A DNA stretch of 64,000 nucleotides from positions 72,654 to 136,653 of the forward strand of contig JALGVT010000003.1 in the NCBI GenBank assembly GCA_025774555.1. Direction: 5' to 3'. The position numbers were made by a program, and so were the translations under genes. Positions within the stretch are counted from its first letter, which is position 1. Every line of letters starts with the position of its first letter. Positions 7,434 to 64,000 of this stretch are shown in pieces. The notes under the pieces were generated by a model. The model made no database searches. It had not been told where the DNA came from and saw nothing but the letters and a program-made list of their open reading frames with translations. This DNA is from a candidate division LCP-89 bacterium. GTDB lineage: Bacteria; Electryoneota; B3-LCP.

Positions 7434-7484
7434 ATAAGGTCTATGTAAAAGTAAGCTCAGATAATTAATAATCCAGAGGAATAA

Positions 7485-7679: not shown

Positions 7680-7681
7680 GA

Positions 7682-8857: not shown

Positions 8858-8878
8858 GGCAAAAGGACAAATCAAGAT

Positions 8879-12922: not shown

Positions 12923-12949
12923 TTATTCTGTTCATAATTAATAGTTGAT

Positions 12950-14062
12950 ATGGCACAGAAGCGAGCAGCCGTTGCCATGAGCGGCGGCGTGGATAGTTCA
13001 GTTACTGCGGCTTTACTGCTGAATAAGGGCTATGACGTCATCGGTATAACGATGAAGTTGTTTGCTCCTAAAACTACTGATCTCTCTTCGCAAATCGAAC
13101 GCGGCTGTTGTAATATCGATGCTGTCCACCGCGCCGAATCCGTCTGTCACACGCTAAACATTCCGCATTACTCCGTTGACCTGATAGATAAGTTTCAAAA
13201 ACACGTTATAGATGATTTCAGCGACGAATATATAGCCGGTCGGACTCCCAATCCTTGTGTCAGATGTAATGCCTTCCTCAAGTGGGGCAGTTTGCTGAGG
13301 AAAGCAGAATTGTTAGAGCGCCAATATCTGGCAACTGGTCATTACGCTCGTATTGATAAGGTAGGAGATGAATATCATCTGCTGAGGGCTGAAAATCACG
13401 ACAAGGATCAGGTTTATGCTCTCTGGGGAATACCGGCGGACGCTCTGTCGAAAACCCTGTTCCCTCTCGGGTCTCTAAGGAAAGAAAAAGTCAGGGAGAT
13501 TGCATCATCACTTGACTTGAAATCCGCGCAGACGCCGGAGAGTCAGGAAATATGTTTTATCCCCGGAAATGATTACGCCGAGTTTCTAAGAGGTTATCGT
13601 CCCGATTTTTTCACGCAACTTCAACCGGGCGACCTGATCGAAGAGACGTCAGAAGATGTGAAGAAAGTCGGCGAACACGCTGGTTATCCATTTTACACCA
13701 TCGGACAGAGGCGGGGCTTGGGCGGCGGGTTTCCTGACCCGAGATATGTGAACCGGATAGACCCGCAGACAAACCGGGTGTATATCGGAACTAAGGAAAG
13801 GCTCTTCAGCAAACGTTTTGAGGTGGATCAAATCAACTGGTTGATTGCCTCGCCGCATAGCGCAATCGTTGCTGAGGTTCAAATACGGTATCGGTCTCCC
13901 GCGGTACCGGCTCTGATCTATCCAAAAGATGATTCAGTCGGAGCAATAATTGAGTTTGAGGAGCCTGTCGAAGCGATTACTCCCGGGCAATCTGCCGTAT
14001 TCTTCCAAAGTGACCGGCTGATTGGCGGGGGCAGGATTACTATCGTTGCTGATCCTAACTAA
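12950..14062 (+). CDS. mnmA: tRNA-specific 2-thiouridylase
   Basis: AVAMSGGVDSSVTAALL PP-loop plus the conserved Cys pair; adjacent to the cysteine desulfurase, which fits the known sulfur relay. Confidence 0.9.
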   Translation: MAQKRAAVAMSGGVDSSVTAALLLNKGYDVIGITMKLFAPKTTDLSSQIERGCCNIDAVHRAESVCHTLNIPHYSVDLIDKFQKHVIDDFSDEYIAGRTPNPCVRCNAFLKWGSLLRKAELLERQYLATGHYARIDKVGDEYHLLRAENHDKDQVYALWGIPADALSKTLFPLGSLRKEKVREIASSLDLKSAQTPESQEICFIPGNDYAEFLRGYRPDFFTQLQPGDLIEETSEDVKKVGEHAGYPFYTIGQRRGLGGGFPDPRYVNRIDPQTNRVYIGTKERLFSKRFEVDQINWLIASPHSAIVAEVQIRYRSPAVPALIYPKDDSVGAIIEFEEPVEAITPGQSAVFFQSDRLIGGGRITIVADPN

Positions 14063-45652: not shown

Positions 45653-45760
45653 TTAACCATGAGGTGGTGAGTTAAACAATTGGATACGCCGTATTCTCCT
45701 GTGAATGATCTCATTAAACTGGTTATATCATTGCTGATGTATTTATGACTACTAAATGGT

Positions 45761-45805
45761 AAAAACATCAATCGTGGCCTCTGGGTGACCACGATTGATG
45801 TTTTT
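45761..45805. terminator. Bidirectional rho-independent terminator (17-bp perfect stem)
   Basis: AAAAACATCAATCGTGG ... CCACGATTGATGTTTTT with an 11-nt loop; T-runs on both strands; sits right after the minus-strand gene that ends at 45847. Confidence 0.7.
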
Positions 45806-45846
45806 GGCTGGTATCTGGTCGATAGCCTTAGATTTTACTCGTATTG

Positions 45847-47967: not shown

Positions 47968-48039
47968 TTCAGGTTCCTTTCAGTCGAATTTATCTTTTTG
48001 ATATTCACTTTATATAATTGGTTTACTTGAGAACATAAG

Positions 48040-51000: not shown

Positions 51001-51666
51001 GTCAGGACCTTCCGAACCTGTCATGATGCGCAGATTCGTTATTCCAATCGCTTTAAGAGAATCCAGTTCACGATTAAGTCTATCTCTATCACCTCCGGAT
51101 CCGTTGGAAGCGAGGTTTAATCCGTACCAGTAGTTGGCGCCGACGTAGTAATACTTCCTGCCACCGATTTCGAAATGAGTGCCATTCACTTCGACGAAGC
51201 CGGAAGTCCCCAGAGTATAAGCTGAATCCGCCCAATCGACATACTGATTCATGCCGCCGTAATCGTCCCAATTGTTTATGAACGGCAGGATAAGCCTGAT
51301 ACCTTCTAGATCAGCTTTATGGAGCACATAATCCAGTCCCTGGAAGACATATTCCTGGTAAATTCCCGGGCTGGTCTGCAGAGAGTTCCACTGTGTCACA
51401 CCATCATTAAAAGCCCAGGTGCGCAGAACAGACATATCCATTGCCGCTATCTCTTCGATGACCTCATCCACCGCATAGCGAAGTCCCATATCAGCGGCAT
51501 AGACCATCTGGTAGTAATTATTGGCGCCGGCGTAGTAAAAGGGATTTCCATTCAACGTGAAATGGTTACCATCGCGCGTGGCGATTCCAATATTCTCCGC
51601 GTTAGCAGAGAAAATGAAGACCATAATACTGGGTACCAGGATGAGGTGCTGGATAAATCTGGTCAT
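48040..51666 (-). CDS. Multi-domain family 5 glycoside hydrolase (beta-mannanase-like) with a second GH5 domain apparently inserted into the first
   Basis: Signal peptide. GH5 mannanase strand motifs appear in order: VLRTWAFNDG, ILPFINNWDDYGG...YVDWA. A complete second GH5 domain follows (YYYVGANYWY, NLRIMTGSEG, MCLNNFWQWSGG, WELCNEPR, TTGCEG, IHIWPQNWG, LEEFG). Then come the remaining strands of the first barrel (FAWELANEPEC, VTTGSEGFYG, YHAWPDWWG, LILEEYGKS). A roughly 440-aa C-terminal region shares modules with the 706-aa neighbour. Confidence 0.8.
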   Translation of the reverse strand: MTRFIQHLILVPSIMVFIFSANAENIGIATRDGNHFTLNGNPFYYAGANNYYQMVYAADMGLRYAVDEVIEEIAAMDMSVLRTWAFNDGVTQWNSLQTSPGIYQEYVFQGLDYVLHKADLEGIRLILPFINNWDDYGGMNQYVDWADSAYTLGTSGFVEVNGTHFEIGGRKYYYVGANYWYGLNLASNGSGGDRDRLNRELDSLKAIGITNLRIMTGSEGPDTEPWRMVPSFQTSPGVYDPDVLDGLDYLIYAMKQRGIRAVMCLNNFWQWSGGMAQYVNWNGGGPIPYPPPEPGGSWDAFQDYASDFYSNAGAMQDFEDHIAFIINRTNPYTSTTYSDEPAIMSWELCNEPRGFNNNAAAFNIWIDNCAAYIKSLDSNHLVTTGCEGDTPWPSWNGLDFIQNHNGPDIDYTTIHIWPQNWGWYDPANPGGTYASSEASAITYFNNHEAEAVSLGKPMVLEEFGLARDSESYDPSSSTTWRNTFFNAMFDEVYTSASSGQPAAGTNIWSWAGEGRPVLPYGSYWSIGDPWIGDPPHEHQGWYSVYDSDVSTIAIISSHSDQMKTLLTSGEHDDFYQDELCIEWYENHVNTVLNRVNVFNGRVYKEDPTVFAWELANEPECTSDAGGDILQTWIEETAVYIKSIDSLHMVTTGSEGFYGPTGPAHNPSGWMESKGVDFIRNHQPEAIDFACYHAWPDWWGMNLTTSINWTNDHIADTDALLGKPLILEEYGKSQPISTRNQYFQSWLDVILAGAQAGNSSAGSNLWILYHDDYPDYDGFGVYYPAHTSTISILEAHADSMNLLNSISVYVEHVFSSGWHMMSIPLIPEYANIDSIFGDDITGAYYVYEYSQIYGYELIDEVEHGAGYWLALENGAAVDLTGTVPGDSTLLPLDLNWNIVGAAYSDPILLQSLHFTNGIITQSFNDAVNSGWISPAVYQYNNSMGSYQSSDSLHSWGGYWLQTLSSGLQMLTYSPVSEKIPLPMIADNSDEEDDWFVQIEVTLGNLSDYLPGIGVHYNATDEYDVWYDMSAPPTPPSGDYIRLVFYHPEWLAPVGDIFSTDTRAPLDSSSVKTWEGIIEASEEGMVTVDFDNILSILPAGYSARVEHFGGTVDLLQTPQFTFNYTDPYVIDIIVSNDIQAIDDLTLSLSDLDVLLDWSDMAGASVYYIYRSTDPYFETTGISPIDSTAVSQYLDLYALLNVVYFYRVTWE

Positions 51667-51694
51667 CTTTGTCTCGGGATCATTTATGTTTCAG

Positions 51695-53341
51695 TTATAG
51701 TTGATCGAACTCGCTTGGATCGATCAGAAGGTGGGGTGTGATCAATACGACCACTTCGGTTTTCTCGATTTCGGTAGTAGTATTTCCGAAAAGGTAGCCT
51801 AAAATGGGGATGTCTCCCAGGAAGGGGATGCGGTTTCTCGTCTCTCGCTTGTTTTCGGATACCAGACCACCGATACCAATGGTCTGTCCATTGTCAATCT
51901 GCACCCTGGTCTCCACTGATCTCACGCTGGTTACCGGCAGATCTGTGGCGCCGGATCCAGTGACGTCGCTGACCTCAATCACGATATCTGCCGTGATGTT
52001 GGCTTCACTGCCGACATAAGGCGTGATCATCAGCATGATGCCGGTAGCTATTTTTTCCAGGGTCACATAGCTGTAGGCAGAAGATCCCTGGAGCAGTGAA
52101 TAATAGGCTTCCTTCCCAATGCGAATTGCGGCTTCCTGTCCGTCAGAGGTAGTGATGCGGGGGTTAGCGCGGATGTTTGCCTGATCTTTTATGGCTAATG
52201 CCTGAAGTGCTAAACGCAGATCGAAGACCATACCTTGGTGGTGATCTCCGGTTCTGAACATTTCGCTTAAGAAGAAGGATGTGTCGCTGTAAGAGGGCAG
52301 CAGTTTTGACAGTTTGAACGCATCATTCCCTTTCGTGCCTGACCAATCCCATTCCAAACCGAGCGAACGCCTGGCTTCGTCGCCCATCTCCACGACAAGT
52401 GCTTCTATCAATACCTGCTGAGGGGGGTGGTCAACAGCAGCTAACTCCTCCTTGAAACGGTCGATGATTGCAGGGGGAGCAGATATAACCAGCGTATTGG
52501 TTTTTTCGTTCACCTTAATAAAATTATTATAATAGTCGGGTATGAGTTTAGGAACTTCAGCCGCCGGAAGGTGCTTGGGCTTGACCGCCTCTGTCTGCGC
52601 CAGTAGAGGGAAAGAGGGATTGTCAGCCACCGGCGCGCCGACGATGTAATAGTTTTCAATTTTACGGTAACTATAACCCATCGGCGACAGGATCAGACTG
52701 AGCGCCTGTTCGAGGGGTACGTCGATTATATCAAGCGTTATGTAACCTCTCACCATGGCATCCGGAATGATGGCAATCTCTGTCTGTGCGGAAAGATCCA
52801 TCAGCGCCTGGCGGATATCCGTTTCATAGAAGGAATTGGACACCAGCGGTCCGGAGTGATTTGAATCGGTCATAGAAGGCTCTTCACCGGAATCATTCTC
52901 CTGCCCCTGGAGCTTCTTCAACGCGGCTACACCCTGCTCTGCGCTGCTCTCCCAACTGGCGAGTAGAGGATAATTGGCTTCCACCCGTGGAAAATACTGC
53001 CTCAGCAGGTTGAAGCACCGCGCTGCTTTAACCGGGTCTCCCAGCGCTATATTACACCGCCCCAGCAGATACAGCACTTCGTCCATCCGGTAGTACGATG
53101 GCTCCTGCTGTCCGGTGGATCGCAACAGGTCCGCGGCATCCACGTAATCGCCGGAATCCATCAAGGTGGTGGCTCTCTCGATTATTCCGCTGATACCATC
53201 AGGATATATGCTCTCCATTTCCTGCGGCAGCAGGGGGGGTGACTGCGTGCAAGAAAGGATAAGTAATCCGAGTGATAGCGCGCAACAAACGGGAACCCAT
53301 GAGCGTATAATTTTATAGAAGCGGTTGTAGGGACGTATCAT
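51695..53341 (-). CDS. Secretin (GspD/PilQ family) with N-terminal lipoprotein TPR-like (pilotin-like) region
   Basis: Lipobox LILSCTQS, then a TPR-like segment and secretin N-domain (FYETDIRQALMDLSAQTEIAIIPDAMVRG). C-terminal secretin motif IPFLGDIPILGYLFGNTTTEIEKTEVVVLITPHLL. Confidence 0.8.
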   Translation of the reverse strand: MIRPYNRFYKIIRSWVPVCCALSLGLLILSCTQSPPLLPQEMESIYPDGISGIIERATTLMDSGDYVDAADLLRSTGQQEPSYYRMDEVLYLLGRCNIALGDPVKAARCFNLLRQYFPRVEANYPLLASWESSAEQGVAALKKLQGQENDSGEEPSMTDSNHSGPLVSNSFYETDIRQALMDLSAQTEIAIIPDAMVRGYITLDIIDVPLEQALSLILSPMGYSYRKIENYYIVGAPVADNPSFPLLAQTEAVKPKHLPAAEVPKLIPDYYNNFIKVNEKTNTLVISAPPAIIDRFKEELAAVDHPPQQVLIEALVVEMGDEARRSLGLEWDWSGTKGNDAFKLSKLLPSYSDTSFFLSEMFRTGDHHQGMVFDLRLALQALAIKDQANIRANPRITTSDGQEAAIRIGKEAYYSLLQGSSAYSYVTLEKIATGIMLMITPYVGSEANITADIVIEVSDVTGSGATDLPVTSVRSVETRVQIDNGQTIGIGGLVSENKRETRNRIPFLGDIPILGYLFGNTTTEIEKTEVVVLITPHLLIDPSEFDQL

Positions 53342-53412
53342 ATATCTTCTCGATTTTTATCTACTTCAGACTATGCTCTTTGACATAGTCCCTAAAAACC
53401 CGTTAATGTACT

Positions 53413-55038
53413 CTATTTCAATCCTTTAGGTGTTGTCGTAGTGCTGGTAAAGCTTACTTCGGAGCGCTCCCAGACCGGCTTTTTGCCTAAAGTGACAAAT
53501 TCGGCTTTTACAAGGAAACCACCCTGATCCAATGGCGGCAAGGTCATGCGGAACTCGCGTGAAGATCCCGGCAGAATAATTTCCTCCTGATCTTTGCCCA
53601 GATTCATGAAAGCGATCACCTGTCCATTGGTTCGTTCCAATTGCAATTTGCCCTTGAAGGTCGCGACTTTTCCGCCGCTGTTATAAATTGGCACTACTGC
53701 GGTCGTAGGGTTGGCACCCTCTACGGGGTAAATCAGATTGGGTTTGCTGACCTCCAGCTTTGACGGAGGAGATTTGGGATTCTTGGCTACCAGCAGAACC
53801 CCAAATTCCGCACCGCTCACGCGCCCACCAACTGTCAATGGACCAGTGGCGTTGATGCGTACTGCTTTCACGAATGCGCCAAAACCGGTGGTATCGCGTG
53901 GCACCTTGACCTGAGCTTTGATAGAAGCGGTACGTTTTGATTCTATAGATACAGTTTCCGGGGAGATACTTATCCAATCATTGCTCTCCTGAATCTTTGC
54001 AGGGAATGTAAGGGATCCATCCACTTCCATTTTCACATCGGAGACATAAGCTCGAATTTCAGTGGTACGCTCGTCTCTGTTCTGAATCCTGATGGGAACA
54101 GTGCGCACCGCGCCGGGTGTGAGTGTTAGTTCAACCATTTGGGGATTGACCGACATATCCAGATCGAACTCGGACCTGGTCAGGATTTTACTGGAAACGC
54201 TCTTGCCTGTCAAAGAAGCTGGAACTTCGAATTCCAGATTGCTGACTGAACGTATCGCACCGTTCAAAAGCAAACGTACCTCAGCTCTGTATTTACCAGG
54301 ACTTGGAACTTCCGTGAGAGGACAAATAAGATCAACCTCATAACCAGGATATATTTCAAACGGTTTACCCCCTGGCCTGAAGGGAATTGGAACTTTAGTA
54401 GGAAATATACTTGTAGGTCCATAGAGGAGCATATCCCCAGTAACATCCAATCTCCAAACGCCTGGATTTGAGGCTAAAAGACTTATGCAATAATTATCCT
54501 TTCCTGTCACTGGAACAAGTTTCATATCCTTAACTTCTATATTCGTTTTGCCTCTTCCCAGTACCATCGCCTCAATTTTTATAGAAAGAGCAGGTCGTAC
54601 TAAAACGGCAATATTAGCAGATGGTCGCTCAGGCTGAACCTGTATTATAATATAAGCATAATAGTGACCTGGATTGGCAGTGGGATAGGTTATCGTAATC
54701 GGGATGTCCATTGATCCACCAGCCGGGATTTCTAACTCTTCGGCTACAGATATCCAAGACGCGCAGGATTGATATCCAAGGCCTGCATCTACGACCTGAA
54801 TAGTTCCTTCGTTACTCTGGTTGAGATCCCTGACTTCTATAGTATATCTTGATGTTGCTGTTGTGTTGGTTGCAGCCAATATGAAACTGGAGTTGACTCT
54901 TTGCCCTGGATTGCCTTGCAACTGTATATGTGCAGGACTTATCCCAAATCCTCTACGACTTTCTTCTTGTGTCTGTGCTTCAGAAAGTGAAAGCGCAAAA
55001 AATATGGATGTGAAAATTAGGATAGTACTTTTTACCAT
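53413..55038 (-). CDS. Hypothetical secreted 541-aa beta-rich protein (predicted multiple Ig-like/beta-sandwich repeats)
   Basis: Signal peptide MVKSTILIFTSIFFALSLSEAQTQ; recurring ...ISP...I.L...G...V... strand-like patterns; no catalytic motif. Transcribed just upstream of the secretin gene. Confidence 0.5.
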   Translation of the reverse strand: MVKSTILIFTSIFFALSLSEAQTQEESRRGFGISPAHIQLQGNPGQRVNSSFILAATNTTATSRYTIEVRDLNQSNEGTIQVVDAGLGYQSCASWISVAEELEIPAGGSMDIPITITYPTANPGHYYAYIIIQVQPERPSANIAVLVRPALSIKIEAMVLGRGKTNIEVKDMKLVPVTGKDNYCISLLASNPGVWRLDVTGDMLLYGPTSIFPTKVPIPFRPGGKPFEIYPGYEVDLICPLTEVPSPGKYRAEVRLLLNGAIRSVSNLEFEVPASLTGKSVSSKILTRSEFDLDMSVNPQMVELTLTPGAVRTVPIRIQNRDERTTEIRAYVSDVKMEVDGSLTFPAKIQESNDWISISPETVSIESKRTASIKAQVKVPRDTTGFGAFVKAVRINATGPLTVGGRVSGAEFGVLLVAKNPKSPPSKLEVSKPNLIYPVEGANPTTAVVPIYNSGGKVATFKGKLQLERTNGQVIAFMNLGKDQEEIILPGSSREFRMTLPPLDQGGFLVKAEFVTLGKKPVWERSEVSFTSTTTTPKGLK

Positions 55039-55116
55039 TTGACTTTCCCTTCAATTATAACCATTGTATGCCTGGGAGATAGAAAGCTCCCAGACATACC
55101 TTATTAGGCCAGACCT

Positions 55117-55911
55117 TTAGGGCACACTAAGAGTTACATTAAGATTAGCGGTGTAAACGCCCGCCGGATCAGACATACCATTTCTTTCTACCCTACCATG
55201 GAATGTGAAGGTACCCCTAACATATTGGTTCATTGCTAGAGTGTACGTAGGAGAGCCGGCCATGACCCATGCTTTCTGCGTTGGGAATTCGTTAAAAGGA
55301 TTAACCAGACCTGGCCACACAGCACTGGGAGATTCGAGACCAAAGTCAGTGCCCGCAACATTGGAAAGGTACTGACCGTCATTCCACCCAAACGGGGGTA
55401 CGCCTGCAGTCCAACCACCCATATATGTTGTTCCGTTTGCTATGAAGCCGCCCACATCCCACCACGCTGCTGCTGCAGTGAAGTATGATGGGAGAGTAAA
55501 AGACCCATTAGTAAGATCTCCGGACGGTGTAATTTGAAGGTTCATTCCACCATTGCTGGTTACATAGATATCTGCCCAGTCTCCGGACTCCCAGTACTTT
55601 GCTGATGGGGCTGGAGTCGTGGTGGGATCACCAGACCATGGATCGGTTGCATACGTTTTGAGGCCTGGATCATTGCCACTACTATAAGCGCTGCCCTCAA
55701 TTGCGGTTGTGTTCCACCAGTCATATCCTGGTCCCTGTTCCGGAGCAACTTGACCATTTGGTCCGAAAACGATGTTCATGTCTTGCCACTGGACATCAGA
55801 CCACACCGGTATGTCTAGCGTGACAACTACAGTGCCGGTGTAGGTGATAGGCTGTGCAGACACAATACCTGCAAACGCCAGGACAACAAGAATTATTAGT
55901 GCTTTTCGCAT
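55117..55911 (-). CDS. Hypothetical secreted 264-aa Gly/Trp/Thr-rich protein
   Basis: Signal peptidase I-type signal (AGIVSA|QP); Trp- and Gly-rich (8 Trp, many GxxG); no class III (prepilin) signal. Confidence 0.5.
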   Translation of the reverse strand: MRKALIILVVLAFAGIVSAQPITYTGTVVVTLDIPVWSDVQWQDMNIVFGPNGQVAPEQGPGYDWWNTTAIEGSAYSSGNDPGLKTYATDPWSGDPTTTPAPSAKYWESGDWADIYVTSNGGMNLQITPSGDLTNGSFTLPSYFTAAAAWWDVGGFIANGTTYMGGWTAGVPPFGWNDGQYLSNVAGTDFGLESPSAVWPGLVNPFNEFPTQKAWVMAGSPTYTLAMNQYVRGTFTFHGRVERNGMSDPAGVYTANLNVTLSVP

Positions 55912-56179
55912 TTTCTTCTCCTAAATTTCCGCCCAAGGGTATCTGATCGAGGAATGGGAAGTCGTGTCAAGACCTCTTCCCTGCCGGGGAGGGCGGTGCC
56001 CCCCGGTTCCCCGTCCGGCTTTTTTCTCCGGGGAGCCGGAACCCATTTAGCCGTCGGGCTTATCGCCCGGCGGTTACTCTTTACAAACGCTCAGCTTATT
56101 GCCAGGTCATCACCTCCTTTTTTAGGCTCAAAGCCTTGTTGTTCGGTCGTTATATGAACGTAGTCAATCGAATTGACTA

Positions 56180-56662
56180 TTAATCTCGAGATTCTTCTCC
56201 CTCAATATCAGCGCCTGGCTTCTTATCACGAAGCCGCGCCTTGCCTTTGTTCTCGATTTGTTCCTTAATGGATTGCCTTTGCTGGCATTCTTCCAGCCAT
56301 TCAGCCAACTTTACCAGCTTGATCGGTTTCTTCAGAACCTTATATCCCAGCTCCTCAGCTACCTGTTCGTAATCTTTCAGCCATTCATCGATAATCAGGG
56401 CGATATTGTCGATCTTGAAGCCGCTGTTCAGCAGTAGTTCCGTGAATTCCAATCCGTCCATGATCCGCAGATTCAGCTCACAGATCAAGACGTCCAGGCG
56501 CAAATAATCGTTTGCTTCAGATTCTGGCGGCTTCGCTTTCGGCATCGGATAATATGAGGGATCCTCATAAGGTTCAACCTCATAACCATACACCTCCAGC
56601 ATCTCCACAATCTTGGACCGAACGTGTAAGTTTCTCTCAATAACGCAGGCTTTAGGTTTCAT
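56180..56662 (-). CDS. Single-domain response-regulator receiver-like protein with atypical phosphoacceptor site (Glu in place of Asp) and a charged C-terminal tail
   Basis: Aligns to CheY-like receivers: KACVIERNLHVRSKIVEML..., DVLICELNLRIMDGLEF (CheY DWNMPNMDGLEL, so Asp57 corresponds to Glu), KKPIKL (Lys109 conserved). The usual acidic pair near the N-terminus is ER. Confidence 0.55.
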   Translation of the reverse strand: MKPKACVIERNLHVRSKIVEMLEVYGYEVEPYEDPSYYPMPKAKPPESEANDYLRLDVLICELNLRIMDGLEFTELLLNSGFKIDNIALIIDEWLKDYEQVAEELGYKVLKKPIKLVKLAEWLEECQQRQSIKEQIENKGKARLRDKKPGADIEGEESRD

Positions 56663-56806
56663 GAATGAATCCTACTGCACATTTCCATGATTTTGTTTGC
56701 TATTTTATCAGTGCCATACGCCCACTGGTAGTGAATTGATCTGTAGATAGACGATACAGGTAAATCCCCGAGGCTATATTTCCAGCATCGAATGTAACCT
56801 GGCACT

Positions 56807-57871
56807 TTAATTTCCAGTTATCCCCTGCAAGGATATATTCCCCCGGTAACTGCCGGCTACGTCCGCCATGGTGATATCGATGTTGAAACGGAGAATAATC
56901 TCTTCGTTAGGCCTGCAGTGCCGTGAACCACTCCTGGCTACTTCGTTGCTGCTGCCCAGGTTGCCGCTATCCAGCACGTCGCCAGAGGGGCTGACCTGCG
57001 TCCAATGTATTCTGTCTGCTGGTATCTCACCGCGCTCGCTCGTGAGATTGCTTGTATTCGCCAACACTCTCCACTTGCGCGAATTTGTGATGACCTTAAA
57101 GCGGACTTCCTGCTGTGCCTGATAGGTTCCTTCCGGACCATCACCCTGGAAATCCAACTCCCCACCGCACAAGAAAGCTATCTCCATGATTTCGGGGATT
57201 GTGAGGGCGACATGTACCTGGCCAGGAAGTCCCTGAAAGGGCGTTCCTGCACCCGGTGTTGGTGTGAAGTGTTGACTCGGACTTGGATCAAGACCTTCAC
57301 CTTTACGATTAGAAGAGGTCTTTCTTGCAGAAAATTTTGATGTATGTGTTTTTATTTTTGGCCCTGAAGGCGTCAGAACCAGGGTGCCATGATATTCACC
57401 CGGCGGGTCCTGCCAGGTGGGACGAACTTCTATTGCAATCTCAGTATCCTTAACAGGCATTCCAAGGTTGCCGATCACGACTGGTATGGGTTTGGTTAAA
57501 GGTGTGAAAGCACCGCCGGTCTCTTCAGTTTTTATCCATAAGCGGTCAGGCGGGAGAGCGCCTTCCGGTCCCTCCAGATTAGTTGGGACAATAGTAGCAC
57601 TCCATTCAGGCAGATAGGATTGTACTCTCAGTTTGAGAATGCCGCTGCTGATCCAGGGAGCATGTTCATAACCCCCTTGAGGTCCAAATTCCAAGCGAAC
57701 CTGATCGCTCTCGGGGATGATCTGAATGAAACCATTTTTGAGCACGGGTGACGCGGGAGAAATTTCCTGTCCATACGCGTCATTACGGGTAGCAAGGAGG
57801 AGCGCCAAAATCAACAGCAGCCCGCATATGGTGTAGATCACTAATCTTTTCGTGATCTTGATTCTTTCCAT
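56807..57871 (-). CDS. Hypothetical secreted 354-aa protein
   Basis: N-terminal transmembrane/signal segment (LVIYTICGLLLILALLLATRNDAYGQ); Pro/Gly-rich middle section; no recognisable motif. Confidence 0.5.
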   Translation of the reverse strand: MERIKITKRLVIYTICGLLLILALLLATRNDAYGQEISPASPVLKNGFIQIIPESDQVRLEFGPQGGYEHAPWISSGILKLRVQSYLPEWSATIVPTNLEGPEGALPPDRLWIKTEETGGAFTPLTKPIPVVIGNLGMPVKDTEIAIEVRPTWQDPPGEYHGTLVLTPSGPKIKTHTSKFSARKTSSNRKGEGLDPSPSQHFTPTPGAGTPFQGLPGQVHVALTIPEIMEIAFLCGGELDFQGDGPEGTYQAQQEVRFKVITNSRKWRVLANTSNLTSERGEIPADRIHWTQVSPSGDVLDSGNLGSSNEVARSGSRHCRPNEEIILRFNIDITMADVAGSYRGNISLQGITGN

Positions 57872-58900
57872 GGCTGATTTCCTCCAACCTTTTATGGAGC
57901 AGATGATGGAAAAATACTGTTCTGCAAAATTCTGCGGATTGAATAAGCAGATCCCCGAGAATAAGTCAAGGAATGGTAGTTTTAACTTGATTTCTACAGT
58001 TTAAATTTGTATATTAAAGAGAGTTTGCCCCGTCCCTAATGCTAGGGGTGAATCTCTTGAGCCGGTTTCAGAGGTGCTCCTACACACGCTCTCTTGGAAT
58101 CGGCTCTCCTGTTTTACTCAATTAGATAACGCTTATTAAATATGTTCCTCTACTCACATCCCAATAAGTAGATTTAGAATTAATTCATCCTATACAAGAA
58201 ATCGCCCTGAAAAGAAAAGCCCTCTTGCGAAGTGCAGAAAGATTCCACACTCGAGAGAGGGCAAAGCAATTCTAAGAGTAGCTTTCTAATGACTAACGAA
58301 AACAAACTTTGAGATTTATAAGGCGTAGTTTTAAGATTCATAACAATTTCCTGAAGTAATTCCTTTCACCTGGATATTGAAGCGCCTTACACCCGATATA
58401 TAAAAAAGCAAAAAAGACACAAACGTATCCGCCGAATCAGTGCCACGGATCTGTTTATGCCTTCGACTTACTGGCCCATACGTCCAATCCGACAAGGCGG
58501 CTTGCCCTGAAATATGCAAGCCTTCCCAAAATCAGGGATATACAATATACAAAACTATTTTGGAGAAGTCAAGCATTTTTTTTAAAAACATAAATAATTT
58601 TTCATTTGTCATTATAGGCAGCATTCATAATTCGATAAATTGACATAATATCATGATATTCCCGAACTTCTTCTTGCGAGAATCAAATTCATTTCTTATT
58701 GTTTTACATTCCATTTGAGATTGAACATACAGGACAAGAATAAGACAAAAACCCAGTTGTTTGAAGAAGTCTTATCCAGCGCATGTTAGAGCCTGCACTA
58801 ATCCCTGAAAACAAGACATTTATAAAGGAGCTTTCAACAGAGGTGTTCCTTTTGACCGTGAAGCCAAGTTTATACGTATGAAGGAAGATCACAAACGTAA

Positions 58901-58947
58901 CGGACTCATAATCCGTCGGTCGTAGGTTCGAGTCCTACTGGGCCCAC
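58901..58947 (+). pseudogene. 3' fragment of a tRNA-Met/Ile2 (CAT anticodon) gene: anticodon arm, variable loop, T-arm and 3' acceptor strand only
   Basis: ACGGA-CTCATAA-TCCGT anticodon arm (loop C-U-CAU-A-A), CGGTC variable region, GTAGG-TTCGAGT-CCTAC T-arm, TGGGCCC acceptor 3' strand plus discriminator A. The 26 nt upstream (ACGTATGAAGGAAGATCACAAACGTA) cannot form the matching 5' acceptor strand (GGGCCCA) or a D-arm. Confidence 0.55.
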
Positions 58948-58979
58948 AGTAAATAGACGATATTGTCATTACAAAAATA

Positions 58980-59019
58980 ACAGGAACCTGTAAGCTGCAC
59001 AGGTTCCTGTTATTTTCTA
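58980..59019. terminator. Bidirectional rho-independent terminator (13-bp perfect stem) ending the minus-strand NifX-like/ATPase operon
   Basis: AACAGGAACCTGT / ACAGGTTCCTGTT with loop AAGCTGC; flanked by AAAAAT and ATTTTCT; 22 nt after the stop of the gene at 59042. Confidence 0.7.
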
Positions 59020-59041: not shown

Positions 59042-59956
59042 TCACAATGCTTCGATTTTTTCCTCCAGTTGGTTCCAAAGCTGCTTAATGTCTTCGGCAA
59101 CTCCGTTGTTTGAATATTCCACTACGCTGATTCCCGCAATCTGCGCTTTTGTGAAGGCGCTATCGTAACGAATTTTGCCGATAACTTTCACTCCGTCAGC
59201 TAAAGCTTCATTTTCGATTTCGTTTGATATTTCCTGGTTTAAATCGCATTTGTTAATGCAGACGACCATGGGGATACTGAAGTGGCGCGTTAATTCGGCG
59301 ATACGCTTCAAATCATGCCGCCCGGCGACCGTTGGTTCGGTAACGGCTAGAACGAGATCAGCTCCAGTAAGGGAAGCTATGACGGGACAACCCACTCCCG
59401 GTGAACCATCGATGAAAAGATAGTCGATACCGGTCTCCTCGGCTAATTTCTTCGCCTCGTTTCGCACCAGAGTTACCAGTTTTCCAGAATTTTCTTCAGC
59501 TATCCCCAGACGGGCGTGAGCCATAGGTCCGAAGTGGGTATCTGAGCTGAACAGTTCTCCACAAATCGGAGTTTCCATCTCGATAGCTTTCTCGGGACAG
59601 AAAAAGGAGCATACTCCGCACCCCTCGCAGGCAATTTTATCTATTTCGTATTCGCAGTTGTTCGCTTCGATAGCGGGATCAAGCTTTTTTACGGCGTCAA
59701 AGCGGCACAGGTCATAGCATATTCCGCATGACGTGCATATTTCGGGATCTATCTTTGCCTTGTATCCAGCGCGAAAATCCTCATGATGGAGGATTTTCGG
59801 CTTCATAATGAGGTGTAAATCAGCCGCGTCCACATCGCAGTCAGCCACCACAGCATTATGCGCTAAAGCAGCAAGCGAAGCTACGATGCTGGTTTTTCCG
59901 GTGCCTCCTTTGCCGCTGATGATAACTATTTCTTTCATTTTACTGTTTTGCAGCAT
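59042..59956 (-). CDS. MinD/ParA-superfamily P-loop ATPase with inserted 2x[4Fe-4S] ferredoxin module (COG1149-type)
   Basis: Deviant Walker A ISGKGGTGKTS; two CxxCxxCxxxC(P) motifs (CTSCGICYDLC and CEGCGVCSFFCP) inserted in the ATPase fold. Confidence 0.8.
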   Translation of the reverse strand: MLQNSKMKEIVIISGKGGTGKTSIVASLAALAHNAVVADCDVDAADLHLIMKPKILHHEDFRAGYKAKIDPEICTSCGICYDLCRFDAVKKLDPAIEANNCEYEIDKIACEGCGVCSFFCPEKAIEMETPICGELFSSDTHFGPMAHARLGIAEENSGKLVTLVRNEAKKLAEETGIDYLFIDGSPGVGCPVIASLTGADLVLAVTEPTVAGRHDLKRIAELTRHFSIPMVVCINKCDLNQEISNEIENEALADGVKVIGKIRYDSAFTKAQIAGISVVEYSNNGVAEDIKQLWNQLEEKIEAL

Positions 59957-60294
59957 TAATGATCACAGACATTATTACCTGCCTCGAGATTACCATCGAT
60001 GTATGCTTTTGCAACATTTTCAGGGTAGTCCGGAAAGGCTCCCACTACAACTTCGATGCCATATCCCCGAAAGAAGTTCTGCGCCATTTGTCCCATACCT
60101 CCTGAGATGATGGTGGTAGCACCTTGTTCGCTGAGCCAGCGGGGAAGCACCCCCGGTTCATGAACAGGTGGGGTTAGGGTCTCATTGGACACAATATCGT
60201 TGTTTTCGGGATCAACGCTAATCAATGCGAAATGTTGACAGTGGCCGAAATGAGCACACAGCTTTCCATCTGCAACCGGTATGGCGATTTTCAT
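59956..60294 (-). CDS. NifX/NafY/NifB-C-terminal-like dinitrogenase FeMo-cofactor-binding family protein (small)
   Basis: MKIAIPVADGKLCAHFGHCQHFALISVD... family pattern. A GAGGA ribosome-binding site precedes the ATG at 60294; the longer ORF to 60324 has a weak site. Its stop overlaps the next start. Confidence 0.75.
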   Translation of the reverse strand: MKIAIPVADGKLCAHFGHCQHFALISVDPENNDIVSNETLTPPVHEPGVLPRWLSEQGATTIISGGMGQMAQNFFRGYGIEVVVGAFPDYPENVAKAYIDGNLEAGNNVCDH

Positions 60295-60377
60295 TCTCTT
60301 TTCCTCTGTTTTAGTTAAATTCATTTTACTTTCAATTTGATTCTCGATAAATGAATGGATTGTTCGATTCTATTTAA

Positions 60378-61247
60378 TTATCGTATAGTCTCTTCTTGTA
60401 TTGGCTTGAATCTCATTTTGATAGAGTCCACCAAGCGCTTGAATAACAGTTCGTATTGCGGCAGTGCGTCTACTAGAAGCTCCCCTCGTGAGTAACTTTC
60501 CGCAATCTTACGGTCATCAGGAATTTCGGCGATCAGATCAATATCTTCTTTCCGGCAGTAATCGTGTACCCGGTCGTCGCCTGAACCAGCGCGGTTCAGA
60601 AGAACAGAATATCGTAAATTCAGTTTCCTAACCATTTCGACAGCCAATTTCAAGTCATTCAATCCAAAAGGAGTCGGCTCGGTAACTAAGAGGACATAAT
60701 CTGAATCTTTTACCACCTCAACAACAGGACATGAGGTCCCGGGTGGAGCGTCGATGACTGCATGCTCATTTGCTGGAATGGCACGCTTTACTTCACGAAT
60801 GAGAGGAGGGGACATAGCTTCGCCGATGCGCAGTTTCCCACTGACGAAATTAAGATCGCCGGCGCTGCCGGTCTCTACAATCCCAATATTACGAGGGATT
60901 TCCTTTATGGCTTTAGGTTCACAAACCAAACTGCATCCACCGCAGCTATGGCATAATTCCGGGAAAGTAAGCGGCTTACCAGCTAAGACCACAATAGCGC
61001 TGAAATTGCAGATTTCTCCGCACTTGCCGCAGCCGTCGCATAAATCAAAATTCACCTCGGGGACCAGCGCTCCAATTTGTTCTGTTTTTTCTATCGAGGG
61101 CTTAAGGAAAAGGTGACCATTCGGTTCTTCGACGTCGCAATCTGCATAGGTTACCTTTTCCTCCAAGCGCGACCAGGCGACGGCTAAGTTAGCGGAAACA
61201 GTAGTCTTACCAGTCCCGCCTTTTCCACTGGCGATGGCAACTCTCAT
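60378..61247 (-). CDS. Second MinD/ParA-superfamily ATPase with ferredoxin insertion (COG1149-type)
   Basis: IASGKGGTGKTT P-loop; CDGCGKCGEIC and CHSCGGCSLVCEP 4Fe-4S motifs. Confidence 0.8.
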   Translation of the reverse strand: MRVAIASGKGGTGKTTVSANLAVAWSRLEEKVTYADCDVEEPNGHLFLKPSIEKTEQIGALVPEVNFDLCDGCGKCGEICNFSAIVVLAGKPLTFPELCHSCGGCSLVCEPKAIKEIPRNIGIVETGSAGDLNFVSGKLRIGEAMSPPLIREVKRAIPANEHAVIDAPPGTSCPVVEVVKDSDYVLLVTEPTPFGLNDLKLAVEMVRKLNLRYSVLLNRAGSGDDRVHDYCRKEDIDLIAEIPDDRKIAESYSRGELLVDALPQYELLFKRLVDSIKMRFKPIQEETIR

Positions 61248-61289
61248 TATAGTAATATAATCCTTCGGTAAATCGGCTTTCTATAAGGC

Positions 61290-61544
61290 TCAACCCTGTC
61301 GGGTTAGAGTAGTGCCACATGAGGCACACTGCATTGCGTTGCATGGCGTGCCACTTTGGTGTGGAACGACGGCGCCACATTTAGGGCAGATACAATTACC
61401 GCCCTGACCAAGACCTCTGCCGCCGCCCATACCACGACCACCACTCTGACCACCTCCTCTACCAGAGCCCATGCCGCCACCTTGACCGGCGCCGCGACCA
61501 CCACCTTGACCGCCTGCTTTATTACCTCCACCACCCTGAGGCAT
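61290..61544 (-). CDS. Small Gly/Arg-rich protein with C-terminal Cys-rich zinc-ribbon-like motif
   Basis: MPQGGGGNKAGGQGGGRGAGQGGGMGSGRGGG... low-complexity N-terminus, then CICPKCG...CNAMQCASCG. Lies within the minus-strand operon; the plus-strand ORF over the same DNA is low-complexity nonsense. Confidence 0.5.
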   Translation of the reverse strand: MPQGGGGNKAGGQGGGRGAGQGGGMGSGRGGGQSGGRGMGGGRGLGQGGNCICPKCGAVVPHQSGTPCNAMQCASCGTTLTRQG

Positions 61545-61640
61545 AATGTTCTTCCTTTCTTGCGAGTTTTATACAATCTCTTTGTTTTTACGAGTTCAGC
61601 GTTGAAGAAAAGTTGGATACTTTCTTCATGTATTTACTAA

Positions 61641-62039
61641 CTATTTCTTTTCTGTAGATGCTTTCAGTTCGTCTATGCGTTTGTTAATTTCGCTCATAGC
61701 ACTTTTTAAGCTGTCTGCCTGAGCTTTCAGTCCTTCGATCTCCTGATCTTTGGTCATTGGCGCCATTGGAAGCGCTGCCCCATACCCCTGATAATAATCC
61801 GGGTAAGCAGCTCCGTAGTAACCGTAACCTGGTCCACGTCCGCCACCCCAGGCTCTGCCTCGTCCACCACCCCAGGGCTGACCGCCGCGGCCTGCGCCGC
61901 GATTACCAAAACCATAACCATAACCACTGCCTGGTACGTTATTCATGTATCCGGGAACATCGTATCCGGCGCAATAACCGGCTCTTCGTCCAGTCATCGG
62001 TCCTGCGCCCTGAGGACCTGTTCTATCTCCACGTGGCAT
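61641..62039 (-). CDS. Gly/Tyr/Arg-rich protein with C-terminal coiled coil (resembles the uncharacterized Gly-rich proteins found in NifX-like/Mrp-like clusters of anaerobes)
   Basis: MPRGDRTGPQGAGPMTGRRAGYCAGY...GGGRGRAWGGGRGPGYGYYG... then QEIEGLKAQADSLKSAMSEINKRIDELKASTEKK. Confidence 0.5.
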   Translation of the reverse strand: MPRGDRTGPQGAGPMTGRRAGYCAGYDVPGYMNNVPGSGYGYGFGNRGAGRGGQPWGGGRGRAWGGGRGPGYGYYGAAYPDYYQGYGAALPMAPMTKDQEIEGLKAQADSLKSAMSEINKRIDELKASTEKK

Positions 62040-62078
62040 TTTGTTCTCCTTTCACGTTTATTGCTGTTTACTATTATT

Positions 62079-62438
62079 CTACCAATGACTTGCCACATCT
62101 GCCGAAGAAGCGAATTGATATTCGCCCTTCTTAAATTTATCAATAGCTGTTTTTACCGAACCCTCAACACCGTGAACGATTTTTACTCCTGCGGAAGTTA
62201 ACGCTCGAAAAGCTTTCGGTCCACAATGACCTGTGAGCAGAACTTCGGCTTCATTTTTAACAATCGCTTCAGCCGATTGAATTCCCGCTCCGCTTGCCGC
62301 CTGTAAATTTTGATCATTGTCTATGGGGAGTATCTCTTCCGTTTCGGTATCAACAAGCAAGAAATATTGCGCGCGCCCGAAGCGAGGATCAACTTCTGAT
62401 TCCAGATTAGTTCCAGTAGCGGTTATAATAATTTTCAT
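62079..62438 (-). CDS. NifX/NafY-like FeMo-cofactor-binding family protein
   Basis: MKIIITATGTNLESEVDPRFGRAQYFLLVDTE...LLTGHCGPKAFRAL...VKIV pattern of the PF02579-type family. Confidence 0.75.
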   Translation of the reverse strand: MKIIITATGTNLESEVDPRFGRAQYFLLVDTETEEILPIDNDQNLQAASGAGIQSAEAIVKNEAEVLLTGHCGPKAFRALTSAGVKIVHGVEGSVKTAIDKFKKGEYQFASSADVASHW

Positions 62439-62461
62439 TGTTATACCTCGTTTATTTAGAT

Positions 62462-62845
62462 TTAACTTGTTCTATTTCCGCGTCTGCGGCGATATCCTCT
62501 GCCTTGACCGCAACAACCCGGCATTCTGTAACAAGGCTCTGAAAGGCGATCCGCGATAAATGCCTTTAATACGTCCTCTACGTCGCCAATCAGCCAGGGA
62601 TGAACCTTAATTTTTTGATTAACTAAAAGGTTCATGAACATATCTGATACGGCGCCGCATAACACGTCATCAACACCGTTTCTTTTCAACGATATCGCGC
62701 GTTCTGAAATAGGATCGCGTTCAATCGGCAACTTTAGACGGTTAATTTCACTTTGCTGGTCGAAATCCACCAGAAGTATTTCTCTGGCTACGTCCAACAC
62801 AGGTGAAATTCTATTACCCCACACGGGGATTGCTATGCGCATCAT
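62462..62845 (-). CDS. NifX/NafY-like family protein with Cys-rich, Arg-rich C-terminal tail
   Basis: MMRIAIPVWGNRISPVLDVAREILLVDFD... family pattern; tail CYRMPGCCGQGRGYRRRRGNRTS. Confidence 0.7.
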   Translation of the reverse strand: MMRIAIPVWGNRISPVLDVAREILLVDFDQQSEINRLKLPIERDPISERAISLKRNGVDDVLCGAVSDMFMNLLVNQKIKVHPWLIGDVEDVLKAFIADRLSEPCYRMPGCCGQGRGYRRRRGNRTS

Positions 62846-62872: not shown

Positions 62873-62888
62873 TGCAATCATCGTGCCG
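62873..62888 (-). promoter_or_regulatory. Sigma-54 (-24/-12) promoter GGCAC-N5-TTGCA for the NifX-like/ATPase operon
   Basis: Plus strand reads TGCAATCATCGTGCCG; the minus strand therefore reads CGGCACGATGATTGCA, matching TGGCAC-N5-TTGCA. It lies about 30 nt upstream of the ATG at 62845, with an AAGGG ribosome-binding site between them. Confidence 0.6.
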
Positions 62889-63032
62889 ATAGGGATAAAA
62901 TGATATAAGTTGTTTTTATTATATTATTAATTAACAATTTAAGAAAACAGGCGAGGTGTGTATATTTTTAGAGGGGCGTATTACAGTATCAGTAATGCAA
63001 CTATAGATCAGAATAACGTCGCAGCAACGCTA

Positions 63033-64000
63033 CTATTTATGATGCCTGCTATTCCTGCCATCCATATCGGGAAGGGTGATGTTCAGTTTGTGGATTTTTC
63101 GGTAGAGAGTAGTTTTGTGTATGCCCAGTTCTTTTGCGACTGCGGTGCGATTCCAGTTGTTTCGTTCCAGAGCAGTTGTTAAGAACTGCGCTTCCAATTC
63201 TTCCATAGTCTCTGCGGTAGATGCGGAGGCGGTTTTACTGGCTAAGAGTCCATCAGGAAGATGCTGGGCAAGAATGATTCCTCCGCTGCAAAGCACGAAA
63301 GCGTGCTCGAGGACGTTCTCCAGTTCCCTTATATTCCCGGGATAATCATGGTTCATTACAATTTTTAGCACATCAGGGGAGACGCCGTTGATATCCTTGC
63401 CATGAATCTGGTTGAGTTTTCCAATGAAATGTTCAATCAAGAGTGGAATATCCTCCTTACGGTCACGCAAAGGCGGCAGTATCATATGGATAATATTGAT
63501 TCTGTAAAATAAATCGCGCCGAAATGATCCTTTCTCCACAAGCTCGGCGAGATTCTGGTTTGTGGCGGCTATTATGCGCACGTCAACTTTAACAGTTTCC
63601 ACGTCGCCTAAAGGTTCGAAAGTTCTTTCCTGTAATACGCGTAACAGCCGAACTTGTAGGGCGGAAGAAACGTCTCCTATCTCATCCAAGAATAAGGTCC
63701 CGCCGTCAGCTAATTGGAAGCGTCCCGGTTTGTCTTTCCTGGCGTCGGTAAAAGCGCCTGCTTTATAGCCAAACAGTTCGGATTCGAGAAGCGTGTCTGG
63801 AAGAGCGCCGCAATTTACTGTAATCAGCCGTTTATTTTTTCGAGAGCTTAGATTGTGGATAGCTCGAGCGATCAGCTCTTTGCCCGTTCCACTTTCTCCT
63901 TCAATTAAAACAGTACTATCACTGAGGGATATTGTAGGCAGAATCTCGAATATTTTCTGCATTGCAGGGCTTTTACTGACGATGTCCTCAAATGAGTAGC
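63033..64000 (-). CDS. Sigma-54-dependent transcriptional activator (AAA+ sigma-54 interaction domain plus Fis-type helix-turn-helix), 5'-partial at the window edge
   Basis: GESGTGKE Walker A, ESELFGY, GAFTDA, and C-terminal TAVAKELGIHKTTLYRKI. The frame continues upstream past 63962 (...YSFEDIVSKSPAMQKIFEIL...) to the window end. Confidence 0.85.
   Translation of the reverse strand, partial: YSFEDIVSKSPAMQKIFEILPTISLSDSTVLIEGESGTGKELIARAIHNLSSRKNKRLITVNCGALPDTLLESELFGYKAGAFTDARKDKPGRFQLADGGTLFLDEIGDVSSALQVRLLRVLQERTFEPLGDVETVKVDVRIIAATNQNLAELVEKGSFRRDLFYRINIIHMILPPLRDRKEDIPLLIEHFIGKLNQIHGKDINGVSPDVLKIVMNHDYPGNIRELENVLEHAFVLCSGGIILAQHLPDGLLASKTASASTAETMEELEAQFLTTALERNNWNRTAVAKELGIHKTTLYRKIHKLNITLPDMDGRNSRHHK

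Follow-up and report, generated by a model that had tools for sequence, protein, structure and literature searches.

Here, we describe an operon of seven tightly packed genes, g1 to g7, on the minus strand (59042-62845) of a 64,000-nucleotide stretch of DNA from a candidate division LCP-89 bacterium (contig JALGVT010000003.1, positions 72,654 to 136,653; this whole stretch is called the window below). The locus is very probably a single sigma-54-dependent operon and a compact version of the orp (orange protein) cluster known from Desulfovibrio, with ATPases that would handle metal-sulfide clusters independently of nitrogenase. It is assigned to the orp system, and not to a cluster of unknown kind, because the product of g2 is closest to the solved orange protein (ORP) structure 2WFB, the product of g6 matches the MrpORP family model, and a gene for a sigma-54 activator lies upstream. 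A first-pass annotation of the same DNA had not recognized this named system, and had overlooked both the sigma-54 promoter and the adjoining activator gene. Its account of the gene set was borne out by the results below: three NifX-like paralogues, two COG1149-type ATPases with two 4Fe-4S motifs each and two small Gly/Arg-rich proteins, encoded on one strand in a tightly packed operon that ends at a strong terminator.

The ORP complex was reportedly defined in 2011, as a group of metalloproteins specific to anaerobes. In Desulfovibrio vulgaris Hildenborough, the orp cluster consists of two divergent sigma-54-dependent operons, orp5-orp4-orp3 and orp7-orp8-orp9 (PMC8359166, PMC6345978, PMC3897727), both of which are activated by OrpR (DVU2106) together with integration host factor (IHF) (PMC8359166, PMC3897727). 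Orp3 and Orp4 are paralogous ATPases with two [4Fe-4S] motifs each, Orp8 is the orange protein with its non-covalently bound, anionic [S2MoS2CuS2MoS2]3- cluster, and Orp9 (MrpORP) joins an Mrp/NBP35 Fe-S carrier to a [3Fe-4S]-binding 'Di-Nase' domain (PF02579) (PMC6345978). A small protein that binds a [2Fe-2S] cluster is a homologue of Orp5 (PMC6345978, PMC8359166, PMC3897727). The Mo-Cu cluster of ORP, the Fe-S carrier MrpORP, the complex of Orp3, Orp4, Orp5, Orp8 and Orp9, and the redox regulation by sigma-54, OrpR and IHF have thus been characterized already, while the physiological role of the complex is described as unclear (PMC6345978, PMC8359166, PMC3897727). The first-pass statement that the function of such clusters is unknown was therefore too strong with regard to the parts and their regulation, and holds for the physiological role.

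The window was compared with published descriptions of the orp genes of D. vulgaris Hildenborough, D. alaskensis G20 and D. gigas (DVU2103-DVU2109). Shared features are an ORP homologue, a Di-Nase domain with its three signature motifs, a pair of ATPases with two [4Fe-4S] motifs each (g5 and g7, matched to Orp3/Orp4 by description), a sigma-54 promoter, an adjacent activator gene with the motif GAFTDA, an AT-rich spacer with an IHF-like site and, as seen in orthologues of the activator and not in the fragment present in the window, the Cys triad of OrpR. Gene order also runs parallel, with g4-g5-g7 corresponding to orp5-orp4-orp3 and g1-g2-g6 to orp7-orp8-orp9 (PMC8359166). The two arrangements differ in that the window has one co-directional operon where Desulfovibrio has two divergent ones, that it lacks an Mrp/NBP35 P-loop domain and encodes the Di-Nase domain as a separate gene between the two ATPases, that it adds a DUF5320 gene, and that its host is not a deltaproteobacterium. 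On this comparison the locus largely qualifies as a member of the orp system. That system is already named and partly characterized; what is new here is a variant with cationic partner proteins, which we present as a lead.

NifX-like proteins

Three genes of the operon encode NifX-like proteins. The products of g2 (62079-62438; 119 amino acids), the homologue of ORP (Orp8), and of g6 (59956-60324) score above the PF02579 cut-off of 26.3 bits, with 76.2 and 62.3 bits, respectively, and that of g1 (62462-62845; 127 amino acids) falls below it with 21.2 bits. We regard g1 as a third, divergent NifX-like paralogue because profile-profile comparison (hhalign) of its family, collected from the related loci described below, gives probabilities of 98.6% against the g2 family and 99.2% against the g6 family. 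An alignment of 86 open reading frames (ORFs) of the g1 family shows that the NifX-like domain is kept together with an MPGC(C) motif and a tail rich in Arg and Gly; in g1 itself this Arg-rich, cationic tail (CCGQGRGYRRRRGNRTS) is 23 residues long, with an isoelectric point (pI) of 11.3 and 3 Cys.

Among solved structures, g2 is closest to 2WFB, the ORP of D. gigas (E = 3.9e-23, 44% identity over 110 residues), followed by MTH1175 and TM1816 (each ~6e-15). g6 is a stand-alone protein of the type that forms the C-terminal Di-Nase domain of Orp9/MrpORP: it matches positions 259-365 of the NCBIfam MrpORP model with 130.7 bits (the cut-off for the whole protein is 450), and MrpORP is the sole NCBIfam family matched by the NifX-like proteins of the operon. 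The signature motifs of the Di-Nase domain, CxHFGHCE, TPPPHxPGxxP and a C-terminal CDH (PMC6345978), are all present in g6, as CAHFGHCQ, TPPVHEPGVLP and a C-terminal ...NNVCDH. The longest ORF of g6 encodes 122 amino acids, and its start is probably the ATG at 60294 (112 amino acids) and not position 60324, because a Shine-Dalgarno-like GAGGAAAAGAG lies upstream, members of the family start there and the JGI product has 112 amino acids.

Fe-S ATPases

g5 (60378-61247; 289 amino acids) and g7 (59042-59956; 304 amino acids) encode paralogous P-loop ATPases of the MinD/Mrp class and Orp3/Orp4 type, with 34% identity to one another. Both match Pfam CbiA and Fer4, as well as ParA, and their homologues carry the JGI name 'MinD superfamily P-loop ATPase'. 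In alignments of 88 and 79 members, each family keeps eight invariant Cys in two CxxCxxCxxxC motifs (70/73/76/80 and 99/102/105/109 in g5; 74/77/80/84 and 110/113/116/120 in g7). Walker A is followed in both families by a further invariant Cys in DCDV[ED], and Walker B by one in PGxxCP (C37 in DCDVEE and C173 in PPGTSCP of g5, which also has C231; C40 and C190 in g7). The Walker A motifs of g5 and g7 are of the deviant form (SGKGGTGKT in g5), and the match to the NifH family (PF00142) is limited to the Walker A end.

An AlphaFold model of g5 (predicted local distance difference test score, pLDDT, of 90) is nearest to archaeal MinD, with a template modeling (TM) score of ~0.6-0.7, and its further structural neighbors are FleN, Soj, BchL, ApbC (8ZKC), Cfd1 (6G2G) and HypB (5AUQ). 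The ferredoxin insert of the model, at residues ~50-140, is without a match among these neighbors, and a sequence search found no solved structure that spans the MinD fold together with a ferredoxin insert. By Pfam matches, fold model and JGI naming, g5 and g7 belong to the COG1149-type MinD class with a two-cluster (2x[4Fe-4S]) ferredoxin insert.

Mrp, NBP35, ApbC, Cfd1 and ATPase-type HypB are of the same deviant-Walker-A P-loop class, and their role is the nucleotide-dependent delivery of metal centers. g5 and g7 differ from them in that they lack the Mrp CxxC and have the ferredoxin insert with a single Cys each in DCDV and PGxxCP; NifH, too, is without an inserted two-cluster ferredoxin domain. 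The invariant Cys in the switch regions of g5 and g7 suggest that a NifH-like cluster between subunits may be possible, and we take the switch II Cys (PGxxCP) to be analogous to the switch II cluster ligand of NifH.

Cationic Gly/Arg-rich proteins

g3 (61641-62039; 132 amino acids) encodes a DUF5320 protein (PF17253; 84.8 bits against a cut-off of 27, with the whole profile covered) whose N-terminus carries the motif MPRGDRTGPxGxGPMTGRxxGYCAG. Its middle part consists of 35% Gly, 20% aromatic residues, 8% Arg and 9% Pro, a coiled-coil-like helix makes up its C-terminus, and its pI is 9.5. The product of g4 (61290-61544; 84 amino acids) has an N-terminal half of the (GGGRG)n type that is predicted to be disordered, followed by a mini-ribbon with six invariant Cys and one His (C-x-C-P-x-C-G-x4-H-x4-P-C-x4-C-P-x-C-G). 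In its AlphaFold model, residues 50-84 have a pLDDT of 86-93 and residues 1-49 of ~50. No curated family in Pfam or NCBIfam, PF17253 included, was matched by g4 itself, and the fold of the ribbon gave only non-significant matches of zinc-ribbon/rubredoxin type (E >=0.5). The g4 family comprises >2000 clusters of homologues of 40-77 amino acids, all unnamed, some of which give a PF17253 match; since many members begin with the N-terminal DUF5320 motif, g3 and g4 are considered to be related at their N-termini. The pI values of g1, g3 and g4 are 9.1-9.8 (family medians 9.4-10.0), compared to ~5 for g2, g5, g6 and g7. A search of the literature library used here found no paper mentioning DUF5320 or Dde_3197.

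A similar chemistry is known from IssA (PF2025), an iron-sulfur storage protein from Pyrococcus furiosus. Behind its IPR003731 domain, IssA has a cationic tail of 70 residues, rich in Gly, Arg and aromatic residues and with one Cys, which has been proposed to enclose anionic thioferrate by electrostatic binding (PMC5524996). g1 has the same domain-plus-tail layout in miniature, with a tail of 23 residues as against 70; g3 and g4 share the chemistry, and the composition of the middle part of g3 mirrors that of the IssA tail (PMC5524996). The window differs from IssA in that its long Gly-rich segments stand on separate proteins, one with a coiled coil and one with a Cys6 ribbon, and in that it adds ATPases and a dedicated activator.

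A related arrangement was observed on two Dehalococcoidia contigs (L162 and L163; 4813-6689), with the order DUF134 > DUF4213/DUF364 > g4-like > NifX-like and with neither ATPases nor a sigma-54 activator; here, the small Cys6 protein seems to form a separate module together with its NifX-like neighbor. Such DUF134-linked clusters of Chloroflexota and other anaerobes share the g4-like Cys6, NifX-like and DUF4213/DUF364 genes with the loci described here, 4 of which also include DUF134, and differ in being headed by the DUF134 gene instead of an OrpR-type activator; they are known from gene context.

Operon layout and regulation

The intergenic gaps, in operon order, are 23, 39, 96, 42 and 53 nt (the last is 83 nt with the later start of g6), and the stop codon of g6 overlaps the start codon of g7 (TAATG). 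An intrinsic terminator (58973-59017, minus strand) with a 20-bp hairpin, a 5-nt loop and an A-tract/T-tract lies 25 nt past the stop codon of g7. This hairpin was overlooked by a simple terminator scan and confirmed by folding (dG -31.4 kcal/mol, z -6.2; 0/200 shuffles fold as well).

A sigma-54 (-24/-12) promoter (GGCACgatgaTTGCA; 62873-62887, minus strand) is predicted 27 nt before the start codon of g1. The pattern GGCAC-N5-TTGCA has a single match across the two strands of the window, with 0.14 expected by chance, and almost all of the 64 related loci from which the intergenic region could be extracted have GGCAY-N5-xTGC shortly before the g1 homologue. Further upstream, the 3' part (321 codons) of a gene for an OrpR-type sigma-54 enhancer-binding protein (63033-64000, minus strand) encodes an AAA+ domain with GAFTDA, a lid and a Fis-type helix-turn-helix (Pfam Sigma54_activat, 228 bits; AAA_lid_14; HTH_8). 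Its N-terminal sensor is placed outside the window because the reading frame is open to the window edge. GAFTDA stands in place of the usual GAFTGA, and is also given for DVU2106/OrpR in a table of the D. vulgaris sigma-54 regulome (PMC4641369).

Genome and metagenome scans yielded 103 orthologues of this activator at >=58% identity, of which 99 have GAFTDA and 98 have C-x-[DE]-x6-C-x3-C. Most have ~130-170 residues ahead of the AAA+ domain, and the 22 that were aligned form a PAS-like domain in this region. The Cys motif has the spacing of C52/D54/C61/C65 in OrpR, and C52, D/E54, C61 and C65 have been proposed to hold its redox-sensing [4Fe-4S] cluster (PMC8359166). OrpR has been said to seem restricted to delta-Proteobacteria (PMC8359166); this is contradicted by the OrpR-type activators, with GAFTDA and the PAS Cys triad, that stand beside orp genes in metagenome-assembled genomes (MAGs) of many phyla (loci L001-L160).

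Most of the 64 related loci, across phyla, carry a pair of TTGCR-N4-YGCAA palindromes ~32 bp apart, at ~-180 and ~-150 from the start of g1, which are likely the binding motif of this activator family. The window has two candidate sites, considered weak because both the window and L011, its closest full-length relative, carry degenerate versions only. The distal candidate (63015-63031, minus strand) is an imperfect palindrome, AGCGTTGCTGCGACGTT, right after the stop codon of the activator gene, and the proximal candidate (TAGTTGCATTACTGATAC; 62986-63003, minus strand), at ~-155 from the start of g1, has a good left half (GTTGCA) and a degenerate right half with 2/6 mismatches; its position agrees with that of the proximal site of the related loci. 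The published OrpR palindrome of D. vulgaris, GGGCGYRTTTTGCGCCC, is not present in the window and differs from the TTGCR-N4-YGCAA of the related loci. Between the candidate activator sites and the promoter lies an IHF-like site (AATTAACAATTTA; 62929-62941, plus strand) with one mismatch to WATCARNNNNTTR, in a spacer of 79% A+T. IHF sites occupy the same relative position in the orp promoters of D. vulgaris (PMC3897727); the IHF-like site of the window is weak evidence because it is a consensus match in AT-rich DNA.

Conservation across related loci

A total of 160 related loci were mapped by tblastn and phmmer, in agreement with the first-pass statement that homologous clusters recur across anaerobes. 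In the genome and metagenome collections scanned, neither of which includes the source genome, a MAG of Ca. Tariuqbacter arcticus (Ca. Electryoneota, FCB group) comes closest, with 67% identity in g5, in keeping with the type IX secretion-tail proteins encoded elsewhere in the window. With variations, the order activator > g1 > g2 > g3 > g4 > g5 > g7 > (Mrp-)g6 recurs in MAGs of Zixibacteria, Ignavibacteria, Planctomycetota, Hydrogenedentota, Fermentibacteria, Acidobacteriota, Nitrospirota, Myxococcota and Desulfobacterota, and the order g5-g6-g7 seen in the window is rare (L001, L011 and L161).

Co-occurrence was counted in 41 genome loci with >=5 kb on either side of g5. Within this sample g5 is accompanied by g7 in 38 loci, by g2 and g6 in 35 each, by the activator in 27, and by g3, g1 and g4 in at least 22, 20 and 13, respectively, the last three counts being minimum values, as gene picking readily misses short Gly-rich ORFs. 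On these counts, ORP, the two ATPases and the Di-Nase protein form the core of the system, and the remaining genes are frequent accessories. Among 73 g6-like ORFs of the related loci, 65 are stand-alone and 8 are fused to an Mrp P-loop domain; the fused proteins of Myxococcota MAGs carry the NCBI name 'iron-sulfur cluster carrier protein MrpORP'. When such a fused MrpORP-like protein served as query, the matches listed were 120 closer MAG proteins, with no Desulfovibrio entry among them.

A survey of neighboring genes in 83 related loci (5-10 kb flanks) found no nitrogenase genes among recurrent neighbors. Genes added in related operons encode radical-SAM/winged helix-turn-helix proteins (18 loci), NifU_N (10), metallo-beta-lactamase (8), ARMT1-like (7) and Zn-ribbon (7) proteins, DUF1847 fusions (5), DUF134 (4) and DUF364/DUF4213 ('metal chelation'; 4). 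In the 18 operons with a radical-SAM gene (e.g., L014 10885-11835, L057 1348-1887), the protein has a C-terminal winged helix and its gene lies between the two ATPase genes, and 10 other operons have a NifU_N/IscU-type scaffold inserted; neither insert is found in the window. Two loci of Desulfobacterota type, L075 and L080, encode an ORP homologue with a C-terminal Gly/Lys/Arg-rich tail that includes two Cys (4569-5033 and 9540-10004, respectively) and a divergent activator of ~700 amino acids with apparently two PAS domains (2140-4287 and 7177-9279).

Proposed mechanism and alternative explanations

By extension from the work on Desulfovibrio, the activator would carry a redox-labile [4Fe-4S] cluster in its N-terminal PAS domain and would switch the promoter on at low redox potential only, probably with the AT-rich spacer bent by an IHF-type protein, and the products of the operon would assemble into one Fe-S-rich complex. 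Judging from their anatomy, g5 and g7 may pair up as a (hetero)dimer of the MinD/Mrp/NifH class that is switched by ATP. It would load, hand on or reduce metal-sulfide clusters held by the three acidic-to-neutral NifX-like domains, and the cationic Gly/Arg segments of g1, g3 and g4 would hold anionic cluster species electrostatically. Fe-S fragments, thioferrate, or a cluster of the [S2MoS2CuS2MoS2]3- type of ORP are candidate cargoes. The electrostatic step is proposed by analogy with the IssA tail, and the ORP cluster is likewise anionic and non-covalently bound. An Fe-S theme also runs through the related operons, which add NifU_N, radical-SAM and Mrp domains and DUF364/DUF4213.

Several points weigh against this reading. 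A full MrpORP is not encoded: the Mrp P-loop half of Orp9 is missing from the operon, and a Pfam survey of essentially all ORFs of >=130 amino acids found no Mrp gene in the 64-kb window. In Desulfovibrio, this half is the part shown to pass Fe-S clusters to Orp3/Orp4. The matching of g4 with Orp5, and of g1 with Orp7, is by gene position only, and the g1 and g4 families are possibly further additions to the orp set. The Fe-S PAS domain of the window activator is predicted from orthologues only, the paired TTGCR-N4-YGCAA palindromes are not clearly present in the window or in L011, and the carrier role suggested for g1, g3 and g4 is an analogy from composition. Moreover, the authors of the Desulfovibrio work favor a link to cell division (PMC8359166, PMC6345978).

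One alternative is an ordinary nif accessory region, in which NifX-like and NifH-like proteins would serve assembly of the iron-molybdenum cofactor and nitrogenase would lie just outside the window. PF02579 is indeed the NifX/NafY/NifB-C-terminal domain, and in nif systems, as in the window, a PF02579 carrier domain is found beside deviant-Walker-A Fe-S ATPases of the MinD/NifH class. The NifA model gives the upstream activator 337 bits against a cut-off of 529, and the window ends inside the activator gene, with the DNA further upstream unseen. That score is nonetheless below the cut-off, and the activator has GAFTDA and OrpR-type orthologues; g2 is nearest to ORP and not to NifX or NafY, and the neighboring genes are of housekeeping and envelope functions. 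As the first-pass annotation had noted, nitrogenase is missing: the Pfam survey found no nifH, nifD, nifK, nifB, nifE or nifN in the 64-kb window, DNA past 64000 being unseen, and neither the window nor the recurrent neighbors of the 83 related loci include nitrogenase, a NifB radical-SAM protein or NifEN. A nif accessory role is rejected on this evidence as extremely unlikely, and the system is independent of nitrogenase.

The remaining alternatives partly overlap with the favored reading of the locus as an orp operon that handles metal-sulfide clusters. Storage or detoxification in the manner of IssA, with NifX-like domains that nucleate iron sulfide of the thioferrate type, Gly-rich proteins that wrap it and ATPases that mobilize it, would fit the IssA layout in miniature of g1 and the similar composition of the middle part of g3, and g2 also matches MTH1175, the structure used for modeling the IssA domain. 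We nevertheless consider it quite unlikely, as the long tails are on separate proteins and not on the NifX-like domain, g2 resembles MTH1175 less than it does ORP, whose Mo-Cu cluster is discrete, the domain matched by g6 likewise holds a discrete [3Fe-4S] cluster (PMC6345978), and neither two Fe-S ATPases nor a redox-sensing activator are known parts of an IssA system. The ATPases could also be spatial regulators at the membrane or pole, as MinD is in cell division, a function suggested for the D. vulgaris ORP complex, with the small proteins as adaptors. MinD and FleN are the nearest neighbors of the g5 model, inactivation of OrpR in D. vulgaris leads to morphological defects, MrpORP is polar, and a MinD-like amphipathic helix is reported for the C-termini of Orp3/Orp4 (PMC8359166, PMC6345978); the C-terminal end of g5 (LFKRLVDSIKMRF) could be amphipathic as well. 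A positioning role is very unlikely in our judgment: all components are predicted to bind metals or clusters, related operons take up NifU, Mrp and radical-SAM genes and not division genes, the window survey found no min, fts or par genes adjacent to the operon, and the division link in Desulfovibrio is itself a hypothesis. Equally small is the probability we attach to an ATP-dependent donor of low-potential electrons, or activase, that works in the manner of NifH, BchL or CfbC, with electrons supplied by the ferredoxin inserts and a possible inter-subunit cluster and with the NifX-like proteins as substrates or adaptors. While the invariant Cys in DCDV[ED] and PGxxCP of both ATPase families and the presence of BchL among the structural neighbors of g5 would agree with such a donor, no candidate client enzyme is conserved in the neighborhood of the related loci, and ATPases of the MinD, ApbC and HypB types match the g5 model as well as or better than BchL.

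The favored reading of the locus, as an orp operon, may be carried further. In many phyla the orp core is accompanied by three cationic Gly/Arg-rich components whose chemistry resembles the thioferrate-binding tail of IssA, which offers a testable idea for the ORP complex, namely the handling of anionic inorganic clusters, and a first functional handle on DUF5320 and the >2000 unnamed clusters of small Cys-rich proteins. On a bolder version, the DUF5320 and Cys6 mini-ribbon proteins would be free-standing equivalents of the IssA tail that wrap anionic species (thioferrate, Fe-S fragments or thiomolybdate-copper clusters) scaffolded by NifX-like domains, with the ATPases loading or releasing them, and orp, found in many anaerobic phyla and controlled by an Fe-S redox sensor, would be a general machine for the storage and delivery of pre-formed inorganic clusters instead of a division accessory specific to Desulfovibrio; drawn from analogy, this version is speculative and we hold it to be unlikely.

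Surrounding genes

In the Pfam survey, the rest of the window encodes housekeeping, lipid A/outer-membrane, polysaccharide and secretion functions. The only other sulfur-mobilizing gene is found at 11774-14062 (plus strand), where a class-V aminotransferase (IscS/NifS-like cysteine desulfurase) stands beside the tRNA 2-thiouridylase MnmA; this pair is unlinked to the operon. A block of surface and secretion genes (43631-57871, minus strand), unrelated to the operon, includes two proteins of ~700 amino acids with type IX secretion system (T9SS) C-terminal sorting domains, a secretin with TPR repeats, Pfam-less proteins of 1208, 541, 264 and 354 amino acids, and a stand-alone receiver-domain protein (56180-56662). 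Between the Pfam-less protein of 354 amino acids and a tRNA-like piece lies ~1 kb of AT-rich, ORF-poor DNA (57872-58870; no ORF >67 amino acids), in which no Rfam family was found at E <=0.1. The degenerate tRNA-like piece (58874-58946, plus strand), 27 nt beyond the terminator of the operon and convergent with it, comprises an anticodon arm (with CAT), a T arm and a 3' acceptor strand, without a matching 5' acceptor strand. ARAGORN detected no tRNA beside the operon, and the Rfam tRNA model gives the piece 29.7 bits, just over the cut-off. It could be a tRNA pseudogene or the scar of an old integration.

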